DNA from: a virus
Taxonomy: Duplodnaviria; Caudoviricetes
Direction: 5' to 3' (one strand)
DNA length: 64,000 bases
Virus record (IMG/VR): IMGVR_UViG_3300027974_001530
The notes under the pieces are model-generated. The model ran no database searches. It was not told the origin of the DNA and saw only the letters and a list, made by a program, of their open reading frames with translations. Numbering within the stretch: the stretch's first letter is position 1; each line of letters opens with the position of its first letter. The position numbers and the translations under genes are program-made. Of this stretch, positions 31,623 through 63,969 are shown piece by piece.

Positions 31623-33500
31623 TTATCTCAATTCTCTTAAGTCAAATGTTCTAACTCCATCAACTGTGACTCTTGCGTAGAAACGGTTGTTAACCATTTT
31701 CTTAGCGTATCTTGTCATAATACCTTTGATAGGTGTAAAGTTGAATGGATTGTACATTGTAGGTGTTAATTGTAGAGGTACGTACGGTGCGTAGATGTAA
31801 CCTGTGTCTAACAATGATGTTCCTTTGTGTCCGATCAAAATTGTGTTTGGTGGGAAGTAAGGATCACGGTAAACTTGGTAACGTCCTGACAAAGTACCAA
31901 CTCTCTCAATACCCATGTTATACTGATCTTGCTCAGGAGATGCGTTAGATACGTGGAAGTATTCTAAGTCATCAAAGATTGCAGAAACCTCAGAAGAAAC
32001 AACGATCCAGTTAGCTCCACCTCTTAAAGTAGATTTGTGGATTTGTGCCGACAACTGATTGATCGCAGTGATCAAAGTTTGGTTCCAATCTTTTTGAGTA
32101 TAAGATGTAGTTAATTGTAGTCTTCTCCATCCGTTGTAATCCCAACGTAGGTTCCAAGCCGCTCCTTTACGTAAGTCACGTAAAATTTCACGGTCGATCT
32201 CAGCTGCAACTTGTTCTGACAACAATGCCGTCAATTCAGCTTCAGCATCGATGTTATGGAATGCTGCAACGTCTTGTGCTAATTCAGGAGACCATTGTGC
32301 TCTTAGTTTTCTTTCTGTAACAGATACAGTAACTGACTCAAGGTCAAAAGAAACTTCACCAATTTGATCTTCGAATTCTAAACTTTTATATCTTCTATAA
32401 ACAGCTTGGAATGGAGATGATCCTAAAGTGGCTGTATTATTCGTTAATTCACCAATTGTTGTTCCTGTGTAACCATCTAATGTAGTTGCTCCACAATCAG
32501 CACATGCTGGACAAGAAAGATCAACTTCTAAATAGATACAACCATCTTGGCTACAAATGTCATTGAAAGAACCACCGTTACCGTTAGTTGGGTAAGTAGT
32601 TTGGAATGATGATGATGTAGGTTGTACAATACCTTTACCATAAATTTGAGTAACAACTCTAAATAATAATGGTGCGGATAAATTTGTATTTCCAAGTTCA
32701 TCTAAATTAGGACAACCTGTAGATCCTGTTAACACACTTAAGTCTGCAACGATTTTAAGATCTGATAAGAAAGTTTCAGTATCGATTTCGTTACCATCAG
32801 GTCCTATTAATTTACCAACACCTGCGTTATTAAATCCACAAAGTTTAACAATCATTTTTCTTGTAACTTCACCGTCAAATTGGTTAGTCGCTGCAACTAA
32901 GTTTGAACCTGACCATACTTGTGCAATAGCCGGTTGAGTTACCGCAGTCCACTGACCTTTTGAGTAATCGAACAATCCTGGAGGATCTAATCCTGCCTCA
33001 TTACCTTCATAAAATAAATCATAAAGATTTTTAGTGTATGGTGTTCCTGGTCCACCTGGATATCCTTGGTTAGGATCATTATTACCATCAGCAATTGCTT
33101 GTGGAGATCCGATTGGAGAATAGTGAGTTCCACCTGGATTGGCAATTGCAGGGTCTGAATTATACCCTTGTATACGAGGTACAAAGAAGAACAATTTACC
33201 GATTGGTAAGTTCATTGCTTGTACTGATACGATATCATTCGCTAACAATTTAGAGAAAACTCTTCTTACGATAGGGAAAACAACAGTTTCGAACGCTCCG
33301 TTAGAAGTTTCAGAAGTTGATTCGTTAATCAAGAAAGAAGCTTGGTTTTCATATAACTGTGCTACGTTTTCTTTTAGGTGACCTTTAAGGCCTTCAAGGA
33401 ATCCTAATCTATCCCATTTGTTAATTGTGTCTTCTTTGATAACTTTAAGGTGTTTTAACCCAATATTACCAACAAGACCTGATTCTAATAATGCTCCCAT
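31623..33500 (-). CDS. gp23: Major capsid protein (T4 gp23-like)
   Basis: VFPIVRRVFSKLLANDIVSVQAMNLPIGKLF, RKLRAQWSPELAQD..AFHNIDAEAELTALLSEQVAAEIDREIL, GYIYAPYVPLQ, KGIMTRYAK. Confidence 0.97.
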   Translation of the reverse strand: MGALLESGLVGNIGLKHLKVIKEDTINKWDRLGFLEGLKGHLKENVAQLYENQASFLINESTSETSNGAFETVVFPIVRRVFSKLLANDIVSVQAMNLPIGKLFFFVPRIQGYNSDPAIANPGGTHYSPIGSPQAIADGNNDPNQGYPGGPGTPYTKNLYDLFYEGNEAGLDPPGLFDYSKGQWTAVTQPAIAQVWSGSNLVAATNQFDGEVTRKMIVKLCGFNNAGVGKLIGPDGNEIDTETFLSDLKIVADLSVLTGSTGCPNLDELGNTNLSAPLLFRVVTQIYGKGIVQPTSSSFQTTYPTNGNGGSFNDICSQDGCIYLEVDLSCPACADCGATTLDGYTGTTIGELTNNTATLGSSPFQAVYRRYKSLEFEDQIGEVSFDLESVTVSVTERKLRAQWSPELAQDVAAFHNIDAEAELTALLSEQVAAEIDREILRDLRKGAAWNLRWDYNGWRRLQLTTSYTQKDWNQTLITAINQLSAQIHKSTLRGGANWIVVSSEVSAIFDDLEYFHVSNASPEQDQYNMGIERVGTLSGRYQVYRDPYFPPNTILIGHKGTSLLDTGYIYAPYVPLQLTPTMYNPFNFTPIKGIMTRYAKKMVNNRFYARVTVDGVRTFDLRELR

Positions 33501-35610: not shown

Positions 35611-36330
35611 TTATTTACCCAAATAATCGGTTAATCTTTTCATTAAGTCAAGAGATTTATTTCCGGATTCACCAACATTTCTTTCTACTGACATTTTTTT
35701 ATTTTCTTCTAAATTCTCATCAAATTTTGATCTGTCATTTTTATCTAAGAATAAATAAGCACCAGGAGTTGATGGTGAAGACACTAAATCAAAACATATA
35801 AGTTCAAAATCATCCTGTACTTCGTTTTGTTCTCCAACCTTTTTTAATGATCCTACACCACGAGAGGATATACCTAAAGTAACTCCTTGTCTTAGGTAAT
35901 TTGCCGCTAAGTCACCTTTTGTTGAACATATACCACTTTCATGAAATCCTGGACTTGTAAGTAATCTCAATTTACCTAAAAGAACCGGACCATCCCACCA
36001 AACTTCGGTGATAATGTGTGAAACTCTATCTAAATCAATTAATGATGATTCAGGGTGATTTAATTCAGAAAGAGAGGTTCCCTTATCGATCATTTTTTTA
36101 TAATTCTCAGATTCTCTTTTTAGAATTTTTTCAGGGTAAATTCTACCGTTTCTATTTGGGGTATCGTATTTTTGTAATACCGCATAAAATTCAAATGGTT
36201 TTGAATGGTCTAAATTATTATTATTAGACTCAAGTATATATTGATTGTTTACAGTTCTTGGATTAATGTATCCCGCATCATATTCTATAAGAATGCCCTT
36301 TCCAATTTCATTAGGTCCTAATATTTTCAT
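35611..36330 (-). CDS. gp21: Prohead core protease (T4 gp21-like)
   Basis: NRNGRIYP, ELNHPESSLIDLDRVSHII, LGISSRGVGS (catalytic Ser), DLVSSPSTPGAY. Confidence 0.95.
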   Translation of the reverse strand: MKILGPNEIGKGILIEYDAGYINPRTVNNQYILESNNNNLDHSKPFEFYAVLQKYDTPNRNGRIYPEKILKRESENYKKMIDKGTSLSELNHPESSLIDLDRVSHIITEVWWDGPVLLGKLRLLTSPGFHESGICSTKGDLAANYLRQGVTLGISSRGVGSLKKVGEQNEVQDDFELICFDLVSSPSTPGAYLFLDKNDRSKFDENLEENKKMSVERNVGESGNKSLDLMKRLTDYLGK

Positions 36331-36351: not shown

Positions 36352-36819
36352 TTAAACTTTTTCGGTTTTTACTTTTATTACCTTAGAATTTCCATTTTTA
36401 GTTAAATAACATTTAAAATATTCGTTCTTATTTAAGACATCATCGTATATGTTTTTTACTAATAATTTTAATGATTTTTTTAATGCTAGTGATTTAAAGT
36501 CAATTTCTTTAATTAGATATAAGTTAACCTCCAAATTCATGAATGATTTTTTCTTTAATTGTAATCCACTTGTTCTAAGATCCAAATCAACAATAAATTT
36601 TTCATCAAATATATTTTTATCCATGTTTTGATATAAGGAGTGTTTAATTGCCCTATTCATATTTAAGACAACCCTTGTCCAATTTTCAGAGTCTTTTTTA
36701 GGTTCTACCCAAGTTTGTAAATTTAAATAGAGTGATTTAAATTCTTTCGAATCAACAGTTCCGTAAGTTATTTTTGACGTTCTGAACCCGTTGATTTTTG
36801 AGGTTTTTCCTTTTTTCAT
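36352..36819 (-). CDS. Hypothetical protein flanking bS21
   Basis: 155-aa ORF. Confidence 0.75.
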   Translation of the reverse strand: MKKGKTSKINGFRTSKITYGTVDSKEFKSLYLNLQTWVEPKKDSENWTRVVLNMNRAIKHSLYQNMDKNIFDEKFIVDLDLRTSGLQLKKKSFMNLEVNLYLIKEIDFKSLALKKSLKLLVKNIYDDVLNKNEYFKCYLTKNGNSKVIKVKTEKV

Positions 36820-36863
36820 ATTTTTTTTTCATAGTAAAATTGTTTATTTTGAATAAGTTTACT

Positions 36864-36871
36864 TAAATTTG
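36864..36871 (+). promoter_or_regulatory. Bacteroidota-type -7 promoter (TAAATTTG) for bS21
   Basis: Exact TAnnTTTG, 37 nt upstream of ATG 36909. Confidence 0.6.
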
Positions 36872-36908
36872 TTATATATATCAAGGTAAACAAAATCAAT
36901 ATAAATTT

Positions 36909-37088
36909 ATGTTAATAGTAAAGGTGAAAAAAGGAGATATCGAACGATCTCTAAAAGAATTAAAAAGTAAAGTTATCAAAACAAGACAAAATAGTATCTT
37001 AAATGATTTAAAAGAATATAAAAAAAAATCTGTCATTAATAGACAGATTTTAAATAATTCAAAATATAAACAAAAGAATTTTAATTAA
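36909..37088 (+). CDS. rpsU: Ribosomal protein bS21 (phage-encoded), 59 aa; missed by the ORF track
   Basis: MLIVKVKKGDIERSLKELKSKVIKTRQNSILNDLKEYKKKSVINRQILNNSKYKQKNFN follows the Bacteroidota S21 pattern (MLI..V....I.RALK..K.K..KT.....L......KPSV..R.....A.Y.Q); antisense within the head module. Confidence 0.8.
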   Translation: MLIVKVKKGDIERSLKELKSKVIKTRQNSILNDLKEYKKKSVINRQILNNSKYKQKNFN

Positions 37089-37804
37089 AGACTTTCATTT
37101 AGATTTTTTAATTTTATATAGGAGATTTTATCAAAAGATTCATTTTTAACCTTTTCAATAGTTTCCTTAATTGCCCCAACAGTATCAGGGTCTGAGTCAG
37201 AAGATAATATATTCTCAAGTCTTTTTATTGTGTTTTCTTTAATGAAGTCAAATTTAATTTCTAACTTATCGTTATCTTCTTTTAATAAACTAAGTATTTC
37301 TTTTTTTTCTGACTCACTAACATTAGATAAATAATTTGTAATTGTATCATTAGCAACTTTAACCATACTTTCTAAAGGAAGTGAAACAACCTCGTTATTA
37401 GAAAATGGTTTGGATGACTTAAGACCTTCAACAACAAGTTTTCTACTTTGTATTTTACTTTCCAACATAACAACATTACTTGAAAATAGGTTGTCTATTT
37501 TTTCGTATTCGTTTTTTGTGTTAACGTTATTTAACCATAAACTAATTTCTTGGATGTCCTTTTTATTAATTTTGTTTAATGCGTTCTCATATATTGTTAT
37601 TGACCCATTAATAAAATCATTCGCCACTGATTCGGACAAACCTTTATTAGATGAAAGTTCATCATATAAATAATAAATTTTACTTATATTTTTGTTCTTT
37701 TTAACCAATTCATTAAAGATAAAAATATTATCTTTTAACGTGTTTTTATTGTATGACTCAATTAAACACTTTTCTATTTTAGATTTTAAAACACCAAATT
37801 TCAT
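37085..37804 (-). CDS. Hypothetical helical protein between portal and bS21
   Basis: 239 aa; TATTTAT at 37818-37824. Confidence 0.75.
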   Translation of the reverse strand: MKFGVLKSKIEKCLIESYNKNTLKDNIFIFNELVKKNKNISKIYYLYDELSSNKGLSESVANDFINGSITIYENALNKINKKDIQEISLWLNNVNTKNEYEKIDNLFSSNVVMLESKIQSRKLVVEGLKSSKPFSNNEVVSLPLESMVKVANDTITNYLSNVSESEKKEILSLLKEDNDKLEIKFDFIKENTIKRLENILSSDSDPDTVGAIKETIEKVKNESFDKISYIKLKNLNESL

Positions 37805-37824
37805 ATTTTTTTTTATTATAAATA

Positions 37825-39639
37825 TTAACTGTTTAGTAATTTATCAAGTTCTTGTTCTATATCCCCTAAAGAATTTGACGCCTTTGATAAATCAATATAT
37901 TCATCCCCAAATATATCATCACTTTCTAAAAGTAAGTTTAAATTATTTTTCTTAATACTTTCAGGGATTGGTGGTCCTCCTGCCGACTCTGCTCCTCCAG
38001 GTGGTGGAGGTGGTCCTCCTCCCATTGGTGGAGGTGTTGACCCTCCTGCTGCTGGATCGGCACCCGCAGTTTGGGTACTTCCTGTTTGAGTTTTATAAAG
38101 TTTATCTACAGTATCAAAGAATCCTGTGTGAGTAATTATTGTTGGTGTATTTGCCAATTCGGCTGACACCGCCCTTTCTAATCTTATTTGTTGTAATTCT
38201 AATTTAATTTCTTCATCAGAAAAACCAAAAATATGTTTTTTAGCCCAAGTTGCGGATGTAGGTTGTAGTGAATTTGGAATTTCTGTAACCATATCCTTAT
38301 ACAATAAAACCTTTTCTTTCCATACCTCAACCATTAATAGATCGGCCTGTTTAGATGGGTTAGTTAAACCTAAAGTAAAGTTATTTAATTCATCCTCAAA
38401 CCCAAGTAAAAATAAATGTATAATCGCAATTTTATTTAATTCCGAAATTATACTTTTTTGTATTTTATGAATAGTTCTTGCAAATCTAATATCTAATAAA
38501 GATAAATTTTTACCATCACCCACCGCTTCCTCAAAACCTATATACGCTTTTGGTATTCTTAATGCGGTTAATAATTTCTTTTGGATATATTCAATATCAG
38601 CAATCTCAGAAAGATTTGCGGCTCCCGCCAATGTCTCAATAGGCATTGTCTGTGTTGCGTCCCTAACAGGAATAAAGTAATCTTGATCTACCGCCATTTG
38701 GTTGAAACGTAAATCAACATTACCTGTTTTAGAATCAACAATTTGATCTCGTTTAAATTTATTCGCAACTCTTTGTACGTAAGCCTCAACATCTTTATCG
38801 TCCATATTACCAACAAAGACTTTAAATACTCTTCTTTCGGGAGCTCTTGATGTTCTATAAATTAACATAGCATCTTCCGCTAATACAAGTTGTTTCCATA
38901 TTCTACGAGCCTTTTCTAACATTGATGTACCATATGGTAATTTTCTATCATCACCTAGCAATCTAAAATGGGCCATTTCCCAAGTGTTAAACTCCATATC
39001 CTTATTTTTCCAAGTAAACCTTAAGTTTTTCTCGTTTTTTATTGATGGAGTGGTGTTCATAGTTCTGGCTTCCATGCCTCTTTCTAATCTTTCAATTTCA
39101 ATATTAGGTAATTGCATACAACTTACAATACCTTTTTCAGGATCAAGTTTTAAGTAAACAAAGTTATCACCATACTTACACATGTTTCTTACCCACATTT
39201 GTAAGTTTGTATTAATATCTAAATTATTATTAAATAAATCTACTAAGATACTTTTAATTCTTTGTGATTCAGAATAAACTTGTAATATAAACCCATCATG
39301 GTTTGATGTTGTTGACTCCTCAGCATATATATCCAAGGCCGTTGAGATTTCTGGAGTATATTCCATAGATTCGTAATCGTAGAATGCAGAAATTCTGTTT
39401 GGTTCATAATATACCGCTTGACTGTATAAGTTATTTTCAATCTTTTTCCAATTATCACTTAAAAATAAAGTTTGTTGTATTTCTAATTTCTCTTTTTCAA
39501 ATTTAGACTTATCGGTAGTCTTTAATATTTCTTTTTTATCAAACCTATAGGTAGGATCATCCATCCCTAATAATGAATTAGGTCCGAACGTTTTGGATAA
39601 TCTTTGCCAAATCGTTAAATTTTTTTCGTTTTGTTCCAT
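37825..39639 (-). CDS. gp20: Portal protein (T4 gp20-like)
   Basis: YESMEYTPEISTALDIYAEE, RNMCKYGD, EDAMLIYRTSRAPERRVFKVFVGNM, DYFIPVR, DIEYIQKKLLTALRIPKAY. Confidence 0.95.
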   Translation of the reverse strand: MEQNEKNLTIWQRLSKTFGPNSLLGMDDPTYRFDKKEILKTTDKSKFEKEKLEIQQTLFLSDNWKKIENNLYSQAVYYEPNRISAFYDYESMEYTPEISTALDIYAEESTTSNHDGFILQVYSESQRIKSILVDLFNNNLDINTNLQMWVRNMCKYGDNFVYLKLDPEKGIVSCMQLPNIEIERLERGMEARTMNTTPSIKNEKNLRFTWKNKDMEFNTWEMAHFRLLGDDRKLPYGTSMLEKARRIWKQLVLAEDAMLIYRTSRAPERRVFKVFVGNMDDKDVEAYVQRVANKFKRDQIVDSKTGNVDLRFNQMAVDQDYFIPVRDATQTMPIETLAGAANLSEIADIEYIQKKLLTALRIPKAYIGFEEAVGDGKNLSLLDIRFARTIHKIQKSIISELNKIAIIHLFLLGFEDELNNFTLGLTNPSKQADLLMVEVWKEKVLLYKDMVTEIPNSLQPTSATWAKKHIFGFSDEEIKLELQQIRLERAVSAELANTPTIITHTGFFDTVDKLYKTQTGSTQTAGADPAAGGSTPPPMGGGPPPPPGGAESAGGPPIPESIKKNNLNLLLESDDIFGDEYIDLSKASNSLGDIEQELDKLLNS

Positions 39640-39886: not shown

Positions 39887-41659
39887 TTACCTACCACCAA
39901 ATAACCACCCGTATTTAATGTAATCATCTTTTGTAGCGGCATTAATTTCCCTACCAAAATTATCTCTTTTAACATTCATGTTAGGTAACAATGGATTAAA
40001 GTGAGCCTCTTTTGCAACAGAATCATTTGACGCTACGGTCCAAGACTCCAACATAACCTTAGCTTGTTGGGCAACCTTTTCTAATTTTGTAAAGGAAGAC
40101 TCCCCAACATAAATCGCCATTGATATCCCCATGATAAGGTCATCATGTTGTCCTCTTTGGTGATCTGGTCTACCATTTACATATATAAAAGTGTTCATTT
40201 CATTATATAATCTAACACTTTTTATTTTAAATTTGTGTCTAACCGCCTCCTCAAATGCCGCAATTATTTGTACTCTTTTGTTATTAAAGTTAATTCCGGG
40301 GATTTTATCCACCGCCTTACTTGCATTAGCCCATATACTTGTGGTATCAATACCCTCAACGTATAAACTTTTGTACCCTAATTCTTGTAATTTTCTAACT
40401 GTTGTTATTCCCATACCTCCGGTGATATCGACAACAATAAACGCATTATACATAATCCCCCATTTATATGCGATCTCAGCAAGAGAATCAGGTGGAATTT
40501 TACCAACGTATTCAAAAACTTGTTCTCTCGCATCAAAATCAATAATTTGTATTGAACTAAAATCCTCACTATCCCCTCTTGATACGTCAACCCCCATTAT
40601 GTATTTATTGCCCAATATTGGTTCTTTCCACATCCATAATGAGTTACCCATTAATTTACCTTCAGGTTCTAAAAGGGTGTTATTTTTTATTTCCTCTAAT
40701 TGTTTATTATCAAATACATTATCCCCTGAACCTAAGAACTCACAATTTAACTCTTGATTGATCTTCCTCTTATCGTACTTTAATTTTTTAACCATTTTTT
40801 CGTACCAATTTGAACACGGTTTGTATCCCTCTTTAAAGTATTTAGATATTTCCGTATGATCCCTAACATACGGGTCAATATGTGCAAAGGAGACATGTTT
40901 AGACTCATCCTGTTCATCTTTATTTAAAAGATAATGTACAAGATCATCTGTAGGAACTAAAAACAAATCTTTGGCGTATCTTGGATCTCTCCACCAAAAC
41001 ATTTCAGAAATTTTAAAGTTATTAAAACCTTTTAATGTTTGATCATATATTTCGTAATATATTGGGTCATAACCATTTGGTGTTGATACTACAATTACTT
41101 TACCTCCAGTAGATAACGAGGCCATACAAGCCGGCCAAAAATCACTATCGGCCTCGATAAATGCCGCCTCATCAAACACAAGAATGGTTGGGGTAAATCC
41201 ACGTAACGCATCTTTTGATGTTGCTACCGCCTTTACTTCACTACCATTATTTAATTTATAATGTTTTTGTGAGTTTTTATCTATGGAAAATCCAGCACCA
41301 ACCCACGAAGGCCATTGATCAACAAACGCTCTTATTTTATTAGCCATTTCCATTGAGGTATCAAGTTTGTTGGCAATTATTAGAATTTTTTCAGGTTGGG
41401 TCTTTTTTGCAAAAACTAACCTTTTTGATACCCAAGCCGCAGTAACGGTAGAAACTCCTGCCTGTCTATATTTTAATGCAATGTTCTCTTCGTAGTCCTC
41501 GTAATCTTTCAATAAAGAAACTTGATCAGGAAATAGTTGTAATGGTACGTATTTAGATACTGTATTATCGTATGTTTGTAGATATGTTTTTAAAGCGTAT
41601 TCCGTATCTTTCATACACCTAACATATTCTAACATCACTTGTTCTTTTGTTAAACTCAT
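39887..41659 (-). CDS. gp17: Terminase large subunit (T4 gp17-like)
   Basis: LKYRQAGVSTV (Walker A), LVFDEAAF (Walker B), VSTPNG, GVDVSRGDSEDFS and HDDLIM nuclease motifs. Confidence 0.97.
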   Translation of the reverse strand: MSLTKEQVMLEYVRCMKDTEYALKTYLQTYDNTVSKYVPLQLFPDQVSLLKDYEDYEENIALKYRQAGVSTVTAAWVSKRLVFAKKTQPEKILIIANKLDTSMEMANKIRAFVDQWPSWVGAGFSIDKNSQKHYKLNNGSEVKAVATSKDALRGFTPTILVFDEAAFIEADSDFWPACMASLSTGGKVIVVSTPNGYDPIYYEIYDQTLKGFNNFKISEMFWWRDPRYAKDLFLVPTDDLVHYLLNKDEQDESKHVSFAHIDPYVRDHTEISKYFKEGYKPCSNWYEKMVKKLKYDKRKINQELNCEFLGSGDNVFDNKQLEEIKNNTLLEPEGKLMGNSLWMWKEPILGNKYIMGVDVSRGDSEDFSSIQIIDFDAREQVFEYVGKIPPDSLAEIAYKWGIMYNAFIVVDITGGMGITTVRKLQELGYKSLYVEGIDTTSIWANASKAVDKIPGINFNNKRVQIIAAFEEAVRHKFKIKSVRLYNEMNTFIYVNGRPDHQRGQHDDLIMGISMAIYVGESSFTKLEKVAQQAKVMLESWTVASNDSVAKEAHFNPLLPNMNVKRDNFGREINAATKDDYIKYGWLFGGR

Positions 41660-47026: not shown

Positions 47027-49087
47027 ATGTTAGATTTTGTAGACGATAGTAATGATAAAAATAAAAAAAAGAGTGAGGCCGGAACACCTGTATTAGATAA
47101 TTTTAGTAAAGATCTAATAAAACTTGCCGAACAAGGTAAATTAGACCCAGTAATTGGTAGAGAAAAAGAAATCTTTAGAATTGCCCAAGTTTTATCAAGG
47201 AGGAAAAAAAATAACCCTATTATTATTGGTGAACCAGGAGCAGGTAAAACTGCAATCGTCGAGGGTCTTGCAATGATGATTTATGGTGGAGAGTGCCCAA
47301 AAAATTTGGTAGATAAAAGAATTGTGTCTTTAGACATTAACTCAATTGTTGCCGGCACAAAGTATAGAGGTCAATTTGAAGAAAGAATGAAGGTGATTAT
47401 TGAAGAACTTCAGAACACCCCTAATATTATTTTATTTATAGATGAAATTCATACTATGGTTGGTGCGGGTAATAGTTCAGGTTCTTTAGACGCATCAAAC
47501 ATATTTAAACCTGCGTTATCAAGAGGTGAAATTCAGTGTATTGGAGCAACAACCCTTGATGAATATAGAAGACATTTTGAGAAAGATGGTGCATTAGAAA
47601 GAAGATTCCAAAAGATTATTGTAGATCCATCAACCAAAGAAGAAACGTTTCAAATACTACAACAAAGTAAGGGTAAATATGAAGAACATCATAAGGTTAA
47701 TTATACCGATGAATCACTTCGGTTATGTGTTGAGTTAGCCGATAGATATATTACGGATAGAGAGTTTCCTGATAAGGCTTTTGATATTTTAGATGAGGTT
47801 GGGTCAAGAATGCAAATAGATATAAAATTACCTGAAGAAATTGAGTTATTAAAAGTTGAGGCCCAAGAAATAAAGAAAGAGAAGGCGACCGTTATTAAAA
47901 AACAAAACTACGAACAAGCAGCCGAATTAAGAGATAGAGAAAGAAACGTTTTAATTAAATTAGAAGAGGAGAAAAAGAAATTTGAGGATCATCTTAAAAA
48001 TAGTAAACGAGGTATTCCTGATGAAATCATTTATGAGGTAGTTTCAAACATGACTAAAATTCCTGTTAGTAAAATAAATGTAGATGAGAAAAATTCGTTA
48101 GTTAATCTTGAATTAACTTTAAATAAATACGTTATTGGTCAAGAAGAGGCGGTTGGAAAAATATCAAAATCTATAAGAAGAAATAGAGTTGGGATTAAAG
48201 ACCCTAATAGACCAATCGGTTCGTTTATATTTTTAGGATCAACAGGTGTTGGTAAGACGTTTTTAGCAAAAAAATTAGCAAAAGAAATATTTGGTAGTGA
48301 AGATAGTTTAATAAGAGTTGACATGTCTGAGTACCAAGAGAAACATACCATCTCAAGACTTATTGGATCCCCTCCAGGATATGTGGGACATGAAGAAGGG
48401 GGTCAATTAACAGAACAAGTTAAAAATAAACCATATTCTGTCATACTTTTTGATGAGATTGAGAAGGCAAATAAAGACATATTCGCAACCTTACTACAGA
48501 TGTTAGATGATGGACATTTAACTGATGGGTTAGGCAGAAAGATCAACTTTAAAAACTGTTTAATTATTATGACATCAAATATTGGTGTTAGAAAATTACA
48601 GGACTTTGGGAATGGTGTTGGATTTAAAACAAATAATAATAGTGAAGTTGTCCAAGAGGAGTATAAAAGAGACGTATTGAAAAAAGAATTACGCAAATTT
48701 TTTGCACCTGAATTTTTAAATAGAATTGATGATGTTGTAATATTTAATTCTTTAGTAAAAGAACATATTGATAAAATTGTAAAACTTGAAATTGATAAAC
48801 TAATTGACAGATTAACATCTATGAAATATAACGTTTCTTATGAAGGTTCTGTGACTGATTTTATATCAAAAGTTGGTTTTGATGATCAATACGGAGCAAG
48901 ACCAATTAAAAGAGCGATCCAAGATAAAATCGAAGACTTAATTTCAGAAAAGATATTAAACAATGAGGTTATAGAAGGGGGCGAATATATGTTATTTGTT
49001 AAAGGAGAAGGTGATGATCAAACAATAGAAATTGAGGATAGGTCAAAACCAGAACCAAAGAAAAAAGGAAGAAATAAAAAGGGATAA
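47027..49087 (+). CDS. clpC: ClpC/ClpA-like Hsp100 ATPase lacking the N-terminal Clp-repeat domain
   Basis: Two AAA+ modules (GEPGAGKT, FIDEIH; GSTGVGKT, LFDEIEKA), GAKYRG-type pore loop GTKYRG, short UVR-type M-domain (YEQAAELRD), ClpP-docking VGF loop; begins at TPVLDNFSKDL. Confidence 0.85.
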   Translation: MLDFVDDSNDKNKKKSEAGTPVLDNFSKDLIKLAEQGKLDPVIGREKEIFRIAQVLSRRKKNNPIIIGEPGAGKTAIVEGLAMMIYGGECPKNLVDKRIVSLDINSIVAGTKYRGQFEERMKVIIEELQNTPNIILFIDEIHTMVGAGNSSGSLDASNIFKPALSRGEIQCIGATTLDEYRRHFEKDGALERRFQKIIVDPSTKEETFQILQQSKGKYEEHHKVNYTDESLRLCVELADRYITDREFPDKAFDILDEVGSRMQIDIKLPEEIELLKVEAQEIKKEKATVIKKQNYEQAAELRDRERNVLIKLEEEKKKFEDHLKNSKRGIPDEIIYEVVSNMTKIPVSKINVDEKNSLVNLELTLNKYVIGQEEAVGKISKSIRRNRVGIKDPNRPIGSFIFLGSTGVGKTFLAKKLAKEIFGSEDSLIRVDMSEYQEKHTISRLIGSPPGYVGHEEGGQLTEQVKNKPYSVILFDEIEKANKDIFATLLQMLDDGHLTDGLGRKINFKNCLIIMTSNIGVRKLQDFGNGVGFKTNNNSEVVQEEYKRDVLKKELRKFFAPEFLNRIDDVVIFNSLVKEHIDKIVKLEIDKLIDRLTSMKYNVSYEGSVTDFISKVGFDDQYGARPIKRAIQDKIEDLISEKILNNEVIEGGEYMLFVKGEGDDQTIEIEDRSKPEPKKKGRNKKG

Positions 49088-63857: not shown

Positions 63858-63897
63858 AGGGAATTTCTGAGATCTACAAAATTTTTTTAAAAAAATG

Positions 63898-63969
63898 TAG
63901 CCCCACCTAGAATCGAACTAGGAACTAATCTTTAGAAGAGATTCGTTATATCCATTTAACTATGGGGCC
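63898..63969 (-). tRNA. tRNA-Arg(UCU), CCA not encoded
   Basis: GGCCCCA/TGGGGCT acceptor stem; GTTA/TAAC D-arm; AATCT-CT[TCT]AA-AGATT anticodon arm; CCTAG-TTCGATT-CTAGG T-arm. Confidence 0.95.

Follow-up and report, generated by a model that had tools for sequence, protein, structure and literature searches.

Is the 59-codon open reading frame (ORF) that stands alone on the plus strand between the portal and prohead protease genes of this phage a working ribosomal protein gene and, if so, how might it be expressed and what might it do on the host ribosome? Among the ribosomal protein genes carried by viruses, that for bS21 is the most common. A preliminary description, made from the sequence without database searches, had proposed that a hidden and divergent copy of it lies here, opposite to the portal and protease genes. 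The window, by which we mean the whole 64,000-nucleotide stretch analysed (IMG/VR record IMGVR_UViG_3300027974_001530), is part of a T4-like phage, and its head-gene block places the ORF just as described. It begins at the first ATG/GTG/TTG past a stop and runs for 59 codons plus TAA, and all of the genes that flank it are on the minus strand (Table 1). Elsewhere in the window, a tRNA-Arg (anticodon TCT) lies at 63897-63969 on the minus strand, and a PHROG match at 47027-49087 was read as a ClpC-like unfoldase.

Table 1. Features of the bS21 locus and the surrounding head genes, in window coordinates.
Feature	Position	Strand	Remarks
Major head protein (MCP)	31623-33500	-	Close outside the protease-portal block
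Prohead protease	35611-36330	-	PF03420, E 3.8e-22
orf155	36352-36819	-	Divergent neighbour; by position fam656 of Chen et al. (2022; PMC9723584)
Conserved block	36842-36850	unassigned	GTTTATTTT; lies in the divergent spacer and does not vary within the clade
Putative -7 box, Bacteroidota-type	36864-36871	+	TAAATTTG; fits TAnnTTTG, 37 nt before the ATG
Predicted leader	36872-36908	+	A-rich, nearly G-free, without a Shine-Dalgarno sequence
Conserved block	36874-36884	unassigned	ATATATATCAA; surrounds the predicted start of bS21 transcription; nearly invariant
bS21 coding sequence	36909-37088	+	Y53 aligned to Tyr54 of F. johnsoniae bS21
Terminator-like hairpin	37016-37051	-	Stem of 10 bp with a 7-nt loop, followed by a run of U
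TTAA stop overlap	37085-37088	both	Stop codons of bS21 (+) and orf239 (-)
orf239	37085-37804	-	Convergent, all-helical; by position fam498, 'bS21_CN' of Chen et al. (2022; PMC9723584)
Phage-type promoter-like motif TATTTAT	37818-37824	-	Before orf239, within the 20-nt gap after the portal stop
T4-type portal	37825-39639	-	PF07230, E 8.6e-75
Large terminase (TerL)	39887-41659	-	Close outside the protease-portal block

The order protease (-), orf155 (-), bS21 (+), orf239 (-), portal (-) recurred in 80/80 related contigs, these being the best 80 of 542 relatives in IMG/VR, across which portal identity to the window ran from 99% down to 63%. Related contigs reached 290,887 bp in length, and the longest in the bS21 protein cluster was 280,850 bp. 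The preliminary description had referred to reports of freshwater Bacteroidota phages with bS21 beside structural genes, and the same arrangement is indeed published. Chen et al. (2022; ISME Commun 2:31, PMC9723584) described five clades (a-e) of freshwater bS21 myophages whose complete genomes measure 293-331 kb, at 31.0-33.7% GC, and in which bS21 is reversed between two hypothetical families inside a TerL-portal-protease-MCP block. They predicted Bacteroidetes hosts, noted a retained Tyr54 and a divergent first helix, and proposed that the phage protein replaces host bS21, raising encapsidation as a possibility. The supplement to that paper gives the order fam656 - bS21 - fam498 - portal, with fam498 as the co-evolving 'bS21_CN', and orf155 therefore maps by position to fam656 and orf239 to fam498. 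Compared by gene order and description, our phage resembles theirs in its gene order, freshwater source, low GC (30.6% in the window), relatives of ~290 kb and retained tyrosine, and nothing essential is different. Chen et al. (2022; PMC9723584) already describe the reversed gene and its surroundings and put forward the idea of a ribosome takeover, and what we report on these points is confirmation, not discovery. Our additions concern the promoter class, the leader without a Shine-Dalgarno (SD) sequence, the TTAA stop overlap and the terminator-like hairpin within bS21 codons. The word 'promoter' is absent from the main text of that paper, which leaves the bS21 leader, the stop overlap and the embedded terminator undiscussed.

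The preliminary description had named a Ribosomal_S21 HMM search as a check on its identification, and the outcome depended on whether one sequence or the family was considered. Taken singly, the window protein falls under the curated cut-offs, with 21.4 bits against Pfam PF01165 (cut-off 27; E 2e-4; profile positions 2-54 of 55) and 19.9 bits against TIGR00030 (cut-off 28.95; E 4.8e-4; nearly the whole model covered). The doubt that attaches to this single sequence is removed by the evidence from its family. Among 5.8 billion proteins searched, 208 were relatives; of the 120 that were listed, the majority carry a precomputed PF01165 match or were named S21 at source, and the relatives with PF01165 are 64-95% identical to the window protein. 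A profile built from 35 distinct phage bS21 copies (A1), searched against the entire PDB with an E limit of 1, gave two matches only, both to Bacteroidota-type bS21: that of PDB 9i5v (E 5.6e-11) and that of the F. johnsoniae ribosome 7jil (E 1.7e-10, residues 1-58 against 1-59). The same profile detected bS21 in 123/301 sampled Bacteroidota genomes, with scores of up to 55.6 bits.

Structure prediction gave a model of the expected form, a small basic protein (59 aa, net charge +12) with an extended N-terminal segment followed by two long helices, at residues 11-37 and 40-58 (AF2, pLDDT 91). Foldseek of this model on the PDB returned nothing at E up to 0.001, its top six rows being mitochondrial small-subunit chains at E 4.7-9.4, and a wide VIA-align search found generic long helices and coiled coils only, at Z about 5. 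Both searches are uninformative because bS21 is a small two-helix protein, and as the fold libraries held no significant match, the identification rests on sequence. On that footing, the ORF is confirmed as a genuine phage bS21 gene of the Bacteroidota type, and the proposal of a divergent bS21 is borne out by its relatives and by the profile matches.

When so short an ORF lies antisense among head genes, it might be a chance frame or a Lys-rich low-complexity match, the stretch being merely spacer and terminator between its neighbours. The sub-threshold HMM scores, the Lys-rich composition and the location of a neighbour's terminator within the ORF would all fit such an account. Opposed to it are the end-to-end profile matches to solved bS21 and the pattern of selection, with a median dN/dS of 0.115 (320 pairs), a frame that is intact in 81/81 copies and 21 residues that are invariant over the 35 distinct phage copies. 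A chance ORF is refuted by this conservation pattern, and we regard that account as vanishingly improbable.

The phage-type motif KVIKTRQN had no relative in a scan of 185,579 species genomes, and phage bS21 is therefore a lineage of its own. In the GenBank phage collection, the 5-kb region had no blastn match, and tblastn gave LR745206.1:296645-296812 as its sole match (46% identical, E 2e-3). LR745206.1 is an uncultured phage record of 634,780 bp.

Divergence from the host protein had been read in the preliminary description as a loss of typical residues. Comparison of the phage copies with 55 distinct Flavobacterium bS21 sequences upheld the observations behind this reading and not the reading itself. 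The host KPS is KKS across the phage clade, with K40 at least 90% conserved there; the window protein has 3 Arg, against a clade mean of 5.0 and 7.9 in the host, and its length of 59 aa compares with 61.1 on average in the clade and 64-65 in host bS21. Lys substitutes for Arg, so the net charge stays near +12. The KKS motif, the low Arg content and the short C-terminus are traits of the clade or subclade under purifying selection, not decay, and Y53, the equivalent of Tyr54, is conserved to at least 90% among the phage copies. The window protein is 35-36% identical to Flavobacterium bS21, at the low end of the clade's 36-48%, and at position 34, which is Arg in the phage consensus and in that of the host, its subclade carries Leu. 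In the first helix, phage and host have fixed different residues at about a dozen positions.

In comparison with the bS21 of F. johnsoniae and other Bacteroidia (PMC7797042; PMC9976891), the phage copy shares the fold class, the length class, the N-terminus MLI(V/I), a common KxSV..R core, the retained Tyr54 and an upstream TAnnTTTG. It differs in a replaced helix-1 surface, in Pro41 changed to Lys, in having less Arg and more Lys, and in being 5 residues shorter. The shared tyrosine is of particular weight. In Bacteroidia, concealment of the anti-SD tail of 16S rRNA falls to bS21, and Tyr54, which stacks on A1534 and helps fold that tail onto the platform, is the one residue experimentally shown to matter for this hiding; its replacement in Y54A derepresses SD-led reporters about threefold (PMC7797042; PMC9976891). 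Retention of the tyrosine in the phage protein points to an anti-SD that is kept hidden, as by host bS21.

The preliminary description had also credited the ORF with its own host-type promoter, and as a promoter-like box this proved sound. The start coordinate that it gave, 36864, is the first base of TAAATTTG. With 140 occurrences of TAnnTTTG on the two strands of the window, a single one within the 89 nt between orf155 and bS21 would be no surprise by chance. This spacer is, however, strongly conserved across related phages, and an exact TAnnTTTG lies 33-50 nt before the bS21 ATG in 27/36 of their distinct upstream regions, with a TAnnTTT[A/G] match in a looser window in the remaining 9/36. 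In Flavobacterium rpsU, TAnnTTTG stands 28-31 nt upstream in 75/76 distinct regions.

The genes around bS21 carry another signal instead. TATTTAT occurs in sense orientation within 90 nt upstream in 15/26 window genes preceded by a gap of 45 nt or more (random 90-mers, 3.9%), and it precedes every head gene in the window, including MCP (start 33500), portal (39639) and TerL (41659). For two genes, just 4-5 nt separate the motif from the annotated ATG. None of the genes in this 26-gene window table has TATTTAT and TAnnTTTG together. Counted over distinct related loci, within 100 nt upstream, TATTTAT was found at 19/19 TerL, 36/36 protease, 37/37 orf239 and 28/28 orf564 loci and at 1/36 bS21 loci; the corresponding counts for TAnnTTTG were 0/19, 0/36, 1/37 and 1/28, and 30/36 for bS21. 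From these counts, bS21 differs in promoter class from its neighbours, and TATTTAT is probably the phage's own, perhaps late, promoter element. That the bS21 box is used as a promoter is something we infer from conservation of the motif, the spacer being one on which orf155 must draw as well.

Two blocks in this spacer, GTTTATTTT and ATATATATCAA, are more conserved than the TAnnTTTG box. The G of GTTTATTTT also ends a -33-like TTG (36840-36842), 21 nt before the putative -7 box. On the minus strand, ATATATATCAA reads TTGATATATA, and it could serve orf155 rather than bS21. Because orf155 also needs signals in the spacer, both blocks may serve either strand. Elsewhere in the window, GTTTATTTT was not over-represented and ATATATATCAA was not clearly repeated. 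At the orf155 end of the spacer, the orf155 start is preceded, at a distance of 13 nt, by another ATG that is out of frame with it, an A run separating the two (36817-36832, minus strand). This 13-nt offset is preserved in nearly all related loci, and the upstream ATG could belong to a short upstream ORF, a slippery run or a piece of the initiation region.

The leader sets the phage gene apart from its host counterpart. In many Flavobacteriales an extreme SD is found at rpsU alone, and this gene is read better by ribosomes without bS21, closing an autoregulatory loop (PMC7797042; PMC9976891). In Flavobacterium, AGGAGG is found at -25..-1 at 62/77 rpsU loci. The phage copies have no SD-like word at -20..-1, even of four letters (0/81), so the strong upstream SD that is the hallmark of rpsU autoregulation is missing from all of them. 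This region has an A fraction of 0.60 and a G fraction of 0.015, and the duplex energy of the bS21 leader with the anti-SD is +0.9 kcal/mol. Unlike host rpsU, the phage gene lacks an extended SD and hence SD-based autoregulation, and it therefore stands outside the host loop. If the phage bS21 hides the anti-SD like the host protein, host rpsU translation would stay low.

Absence of an SD is not particular to this gene. Anti-SD pairing at -6 kcal/mol or better was predicted for 1/66 window genes, the head-module genes all being at about 0 kcal/mol, and SD-like words precede 5/66 window genes, as compared with 9.9% of random 20-mers. The preliminary description had suggested that phage bS21 retunes initiation toward SD-less phage mRNAs. 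This does not hold as a distinction, as the mRNAs of Bacteroidia hosts are likewise SD-less (PMC7797042; PMC9976891) and the phage is not set apart from its host. The converse proposal, that phage bS21 unmasks the anti-SD to allow the reading of SD-led late genes, conflicts with the same figures and with the tail-holding tyrosine that is kept. Such unmasking is disfavoured in this lineage by the lack of SDs before the head genes, whose duplex energies are about 0 kcal/mol, and we consider it very improbable.

A simpler possibility is that the gene serves pure maintenance: after host shutdown rpsU mRNA would vanish, the phage copy would merely top up the loosely bound bS21, and SD-less initiation would continue on host and phage mRNAs alike. 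F. johnsoniae ribosomes that lack bS21 or its C-terminal part initiate worse on SD-less mRNAs (PMC7797042; PMC9976891), the head genes of the window are all SD-less, the Tyr54 equivalent is retained, and an SD-less leader lets replete ribosomes make bS21, all of which agree with such a role. Plain replacement would not, however, need the dozen or so helix-1 positions that are fixed differently from the host, nor does it sit easily with a phage form that is a separate lineage, with no KVIKTRQN copy in the species genomes scanned. Maintenance and nothing further seems to us a rather unlikely account.

A quite different role would be that of virion cargo, with the basic protein packaged in the head, either to work on ribosomes once the next infection begins or to bind DNA inside the head. 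The position between portal and protease is where T4 has its small prohead-core genes, and a net charge of +12 in 59 aa would suit this role. Encapsidation was also raised as a possibility by Chen et al. (2022; PMC9723584). Yet bS21 is the sole opposite-strand gene in the block and is without the TATTTAT motif of the head genes, and its N-terminus and rRNA-contacting tyrosine are conserved as in cellular bS21. We therefore consider packaging improbable.

At its 3' end, the gene is tied to orf239. The 4-nt overlap of the two stop codons was found in 43/45 distinct related loci. The terminator-like hairpin on the orf239 strand begins 33 nt past the orf239 stop, is formed by bS21 codons 39-48 and has an MFE of -12.6 kcal/mol (z -3.5). 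Terminator-like hairpins occur in 23/40 distinct antisense-bS21 regions, compared with 6% of random windows, and several lineages have different hairpins at other positions within this region. With shared stops and the hairpin inside bS21, the orf239 transcript must run antisense into bS21. Given its own TATTTAT and its own terminator, orf239 looks monocistronic. It encodes an acidic protein of 239 aa predicted to consist entirely of helices (AF2, pLDDT 83.6), and searches of Pfam and PHROGs, a PDB profile search and Foldseek on the PDB and BFVD returned uncharacterised phage proteins only.

Among bS21 copies defined by their amino acids as carrying the protein motif KKSV..RQI, Val42 is the rare codon GTC in 16/18, against 6/58 other valines, and Gln46 is CAG in 18/18, against 11/36 other glutamines, although the relatedness of the sequences weakens the P values of this test. 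These rare GTC and CAG codons lie at pairing positions of the hairpin, and copies without the motif had no GTC/CAG bias.

The antisense overlap also bears on published expression data. Chen et al. (2022; PMC9723584) tied bS21 RNA to late-stage replication and found very similar RNA levels for bS21 and bS21_CN. The methods of PMC9723584, as written, map bases per gene, with strand unmentioned. As such counts are strand-blind and the orf239 transcript overlaps bS21, the similar levels may partly reflect the overlap.

The explanation that we favour, at a probability of roughly 65%, is that this is a working phage bS21 of the published clade of ~290-330-kb freshwater T4-like myophages, with its own promoter, without an SD and directed to the ribosome. 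It would be transcribed from its own host-type TAnnTTTG promoter, and not from TATTTAT-type sites like those of its head-gene neighbours, and translated from an A-rich SD-less leader that would let it escape the SD-dependent autoregulation of rpsU. As bS21 binds late and can dissociate (PMC9976891), the phage protein could occupy this exchangeable, late-binding site on the host 30S platform. There, the retained tyrosine would keep the anti-SD tail tucked away and the ribosomes competent for SD-independent initiation, and the first helix, which is altered and looks onto the mRNA path, may bias mRNA choice. Of this, our data show the homology, selection, synteny, sequence signals and conserved tyrosine; use of the promoter, incorporation into the ribosome and any preference for phage mRNAs are inferred. 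In the literature, we found no experiment that places any Bacteroidota phage bS21 in a ribosome. The bS21 of the Pelagibacter phage HTVC008M does enter E. coli ribosomes (Mizuno et al., 2019, cited in PMC9976891). As far as that citation goes, a phage-borne bS21 in a T4-like myovirus and the idea of replacement are common to both systems, whereas the host phylum and the bS21 type differ, profile A1 having matched only the Bacteroidota type among solved structures.

Several points count against the favoured explanation. Late-stage bS21 RNA (PMC9723584) fits a host-type promoter poorly, the window protein is under both curated cut-offs with no significant match in the fold searches, and its subclade has Leu34 and merely 35-36% identity to Flavobacterium bS21. 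A more elaborate version is speculative and, in our view, rather unlikely: host RNA polymerase may drive bS21 from TAnnTTTG independently of the head genes, and the protein, in filling vacant bS21 sites with no SD before its own gene, would both escape the rpsU circuit and turn it against the host, whose bS21 synthesis would be shut off. Its output would be tuned by the 3'-end antisense overlap with a co-evolving neighbour that has its terminator in bS21 codons.

The window adds no new kind of element, and instead sharpens three points on a known one: a promoter class unlike that of its late neighbours, the lack of an rpsU-type SD, and a 3' overlap with a neighbour's transcript. Published bS21 expression, estimated without regard to strand, could be too high as a result of the overlap with the orf239 transcript. 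Because the bS21 of Bacteroidia hides the anti-SD, the way in which a phage bS21 acts bears on how viruses may take over translation in hosts that do not rely on SD sequences.
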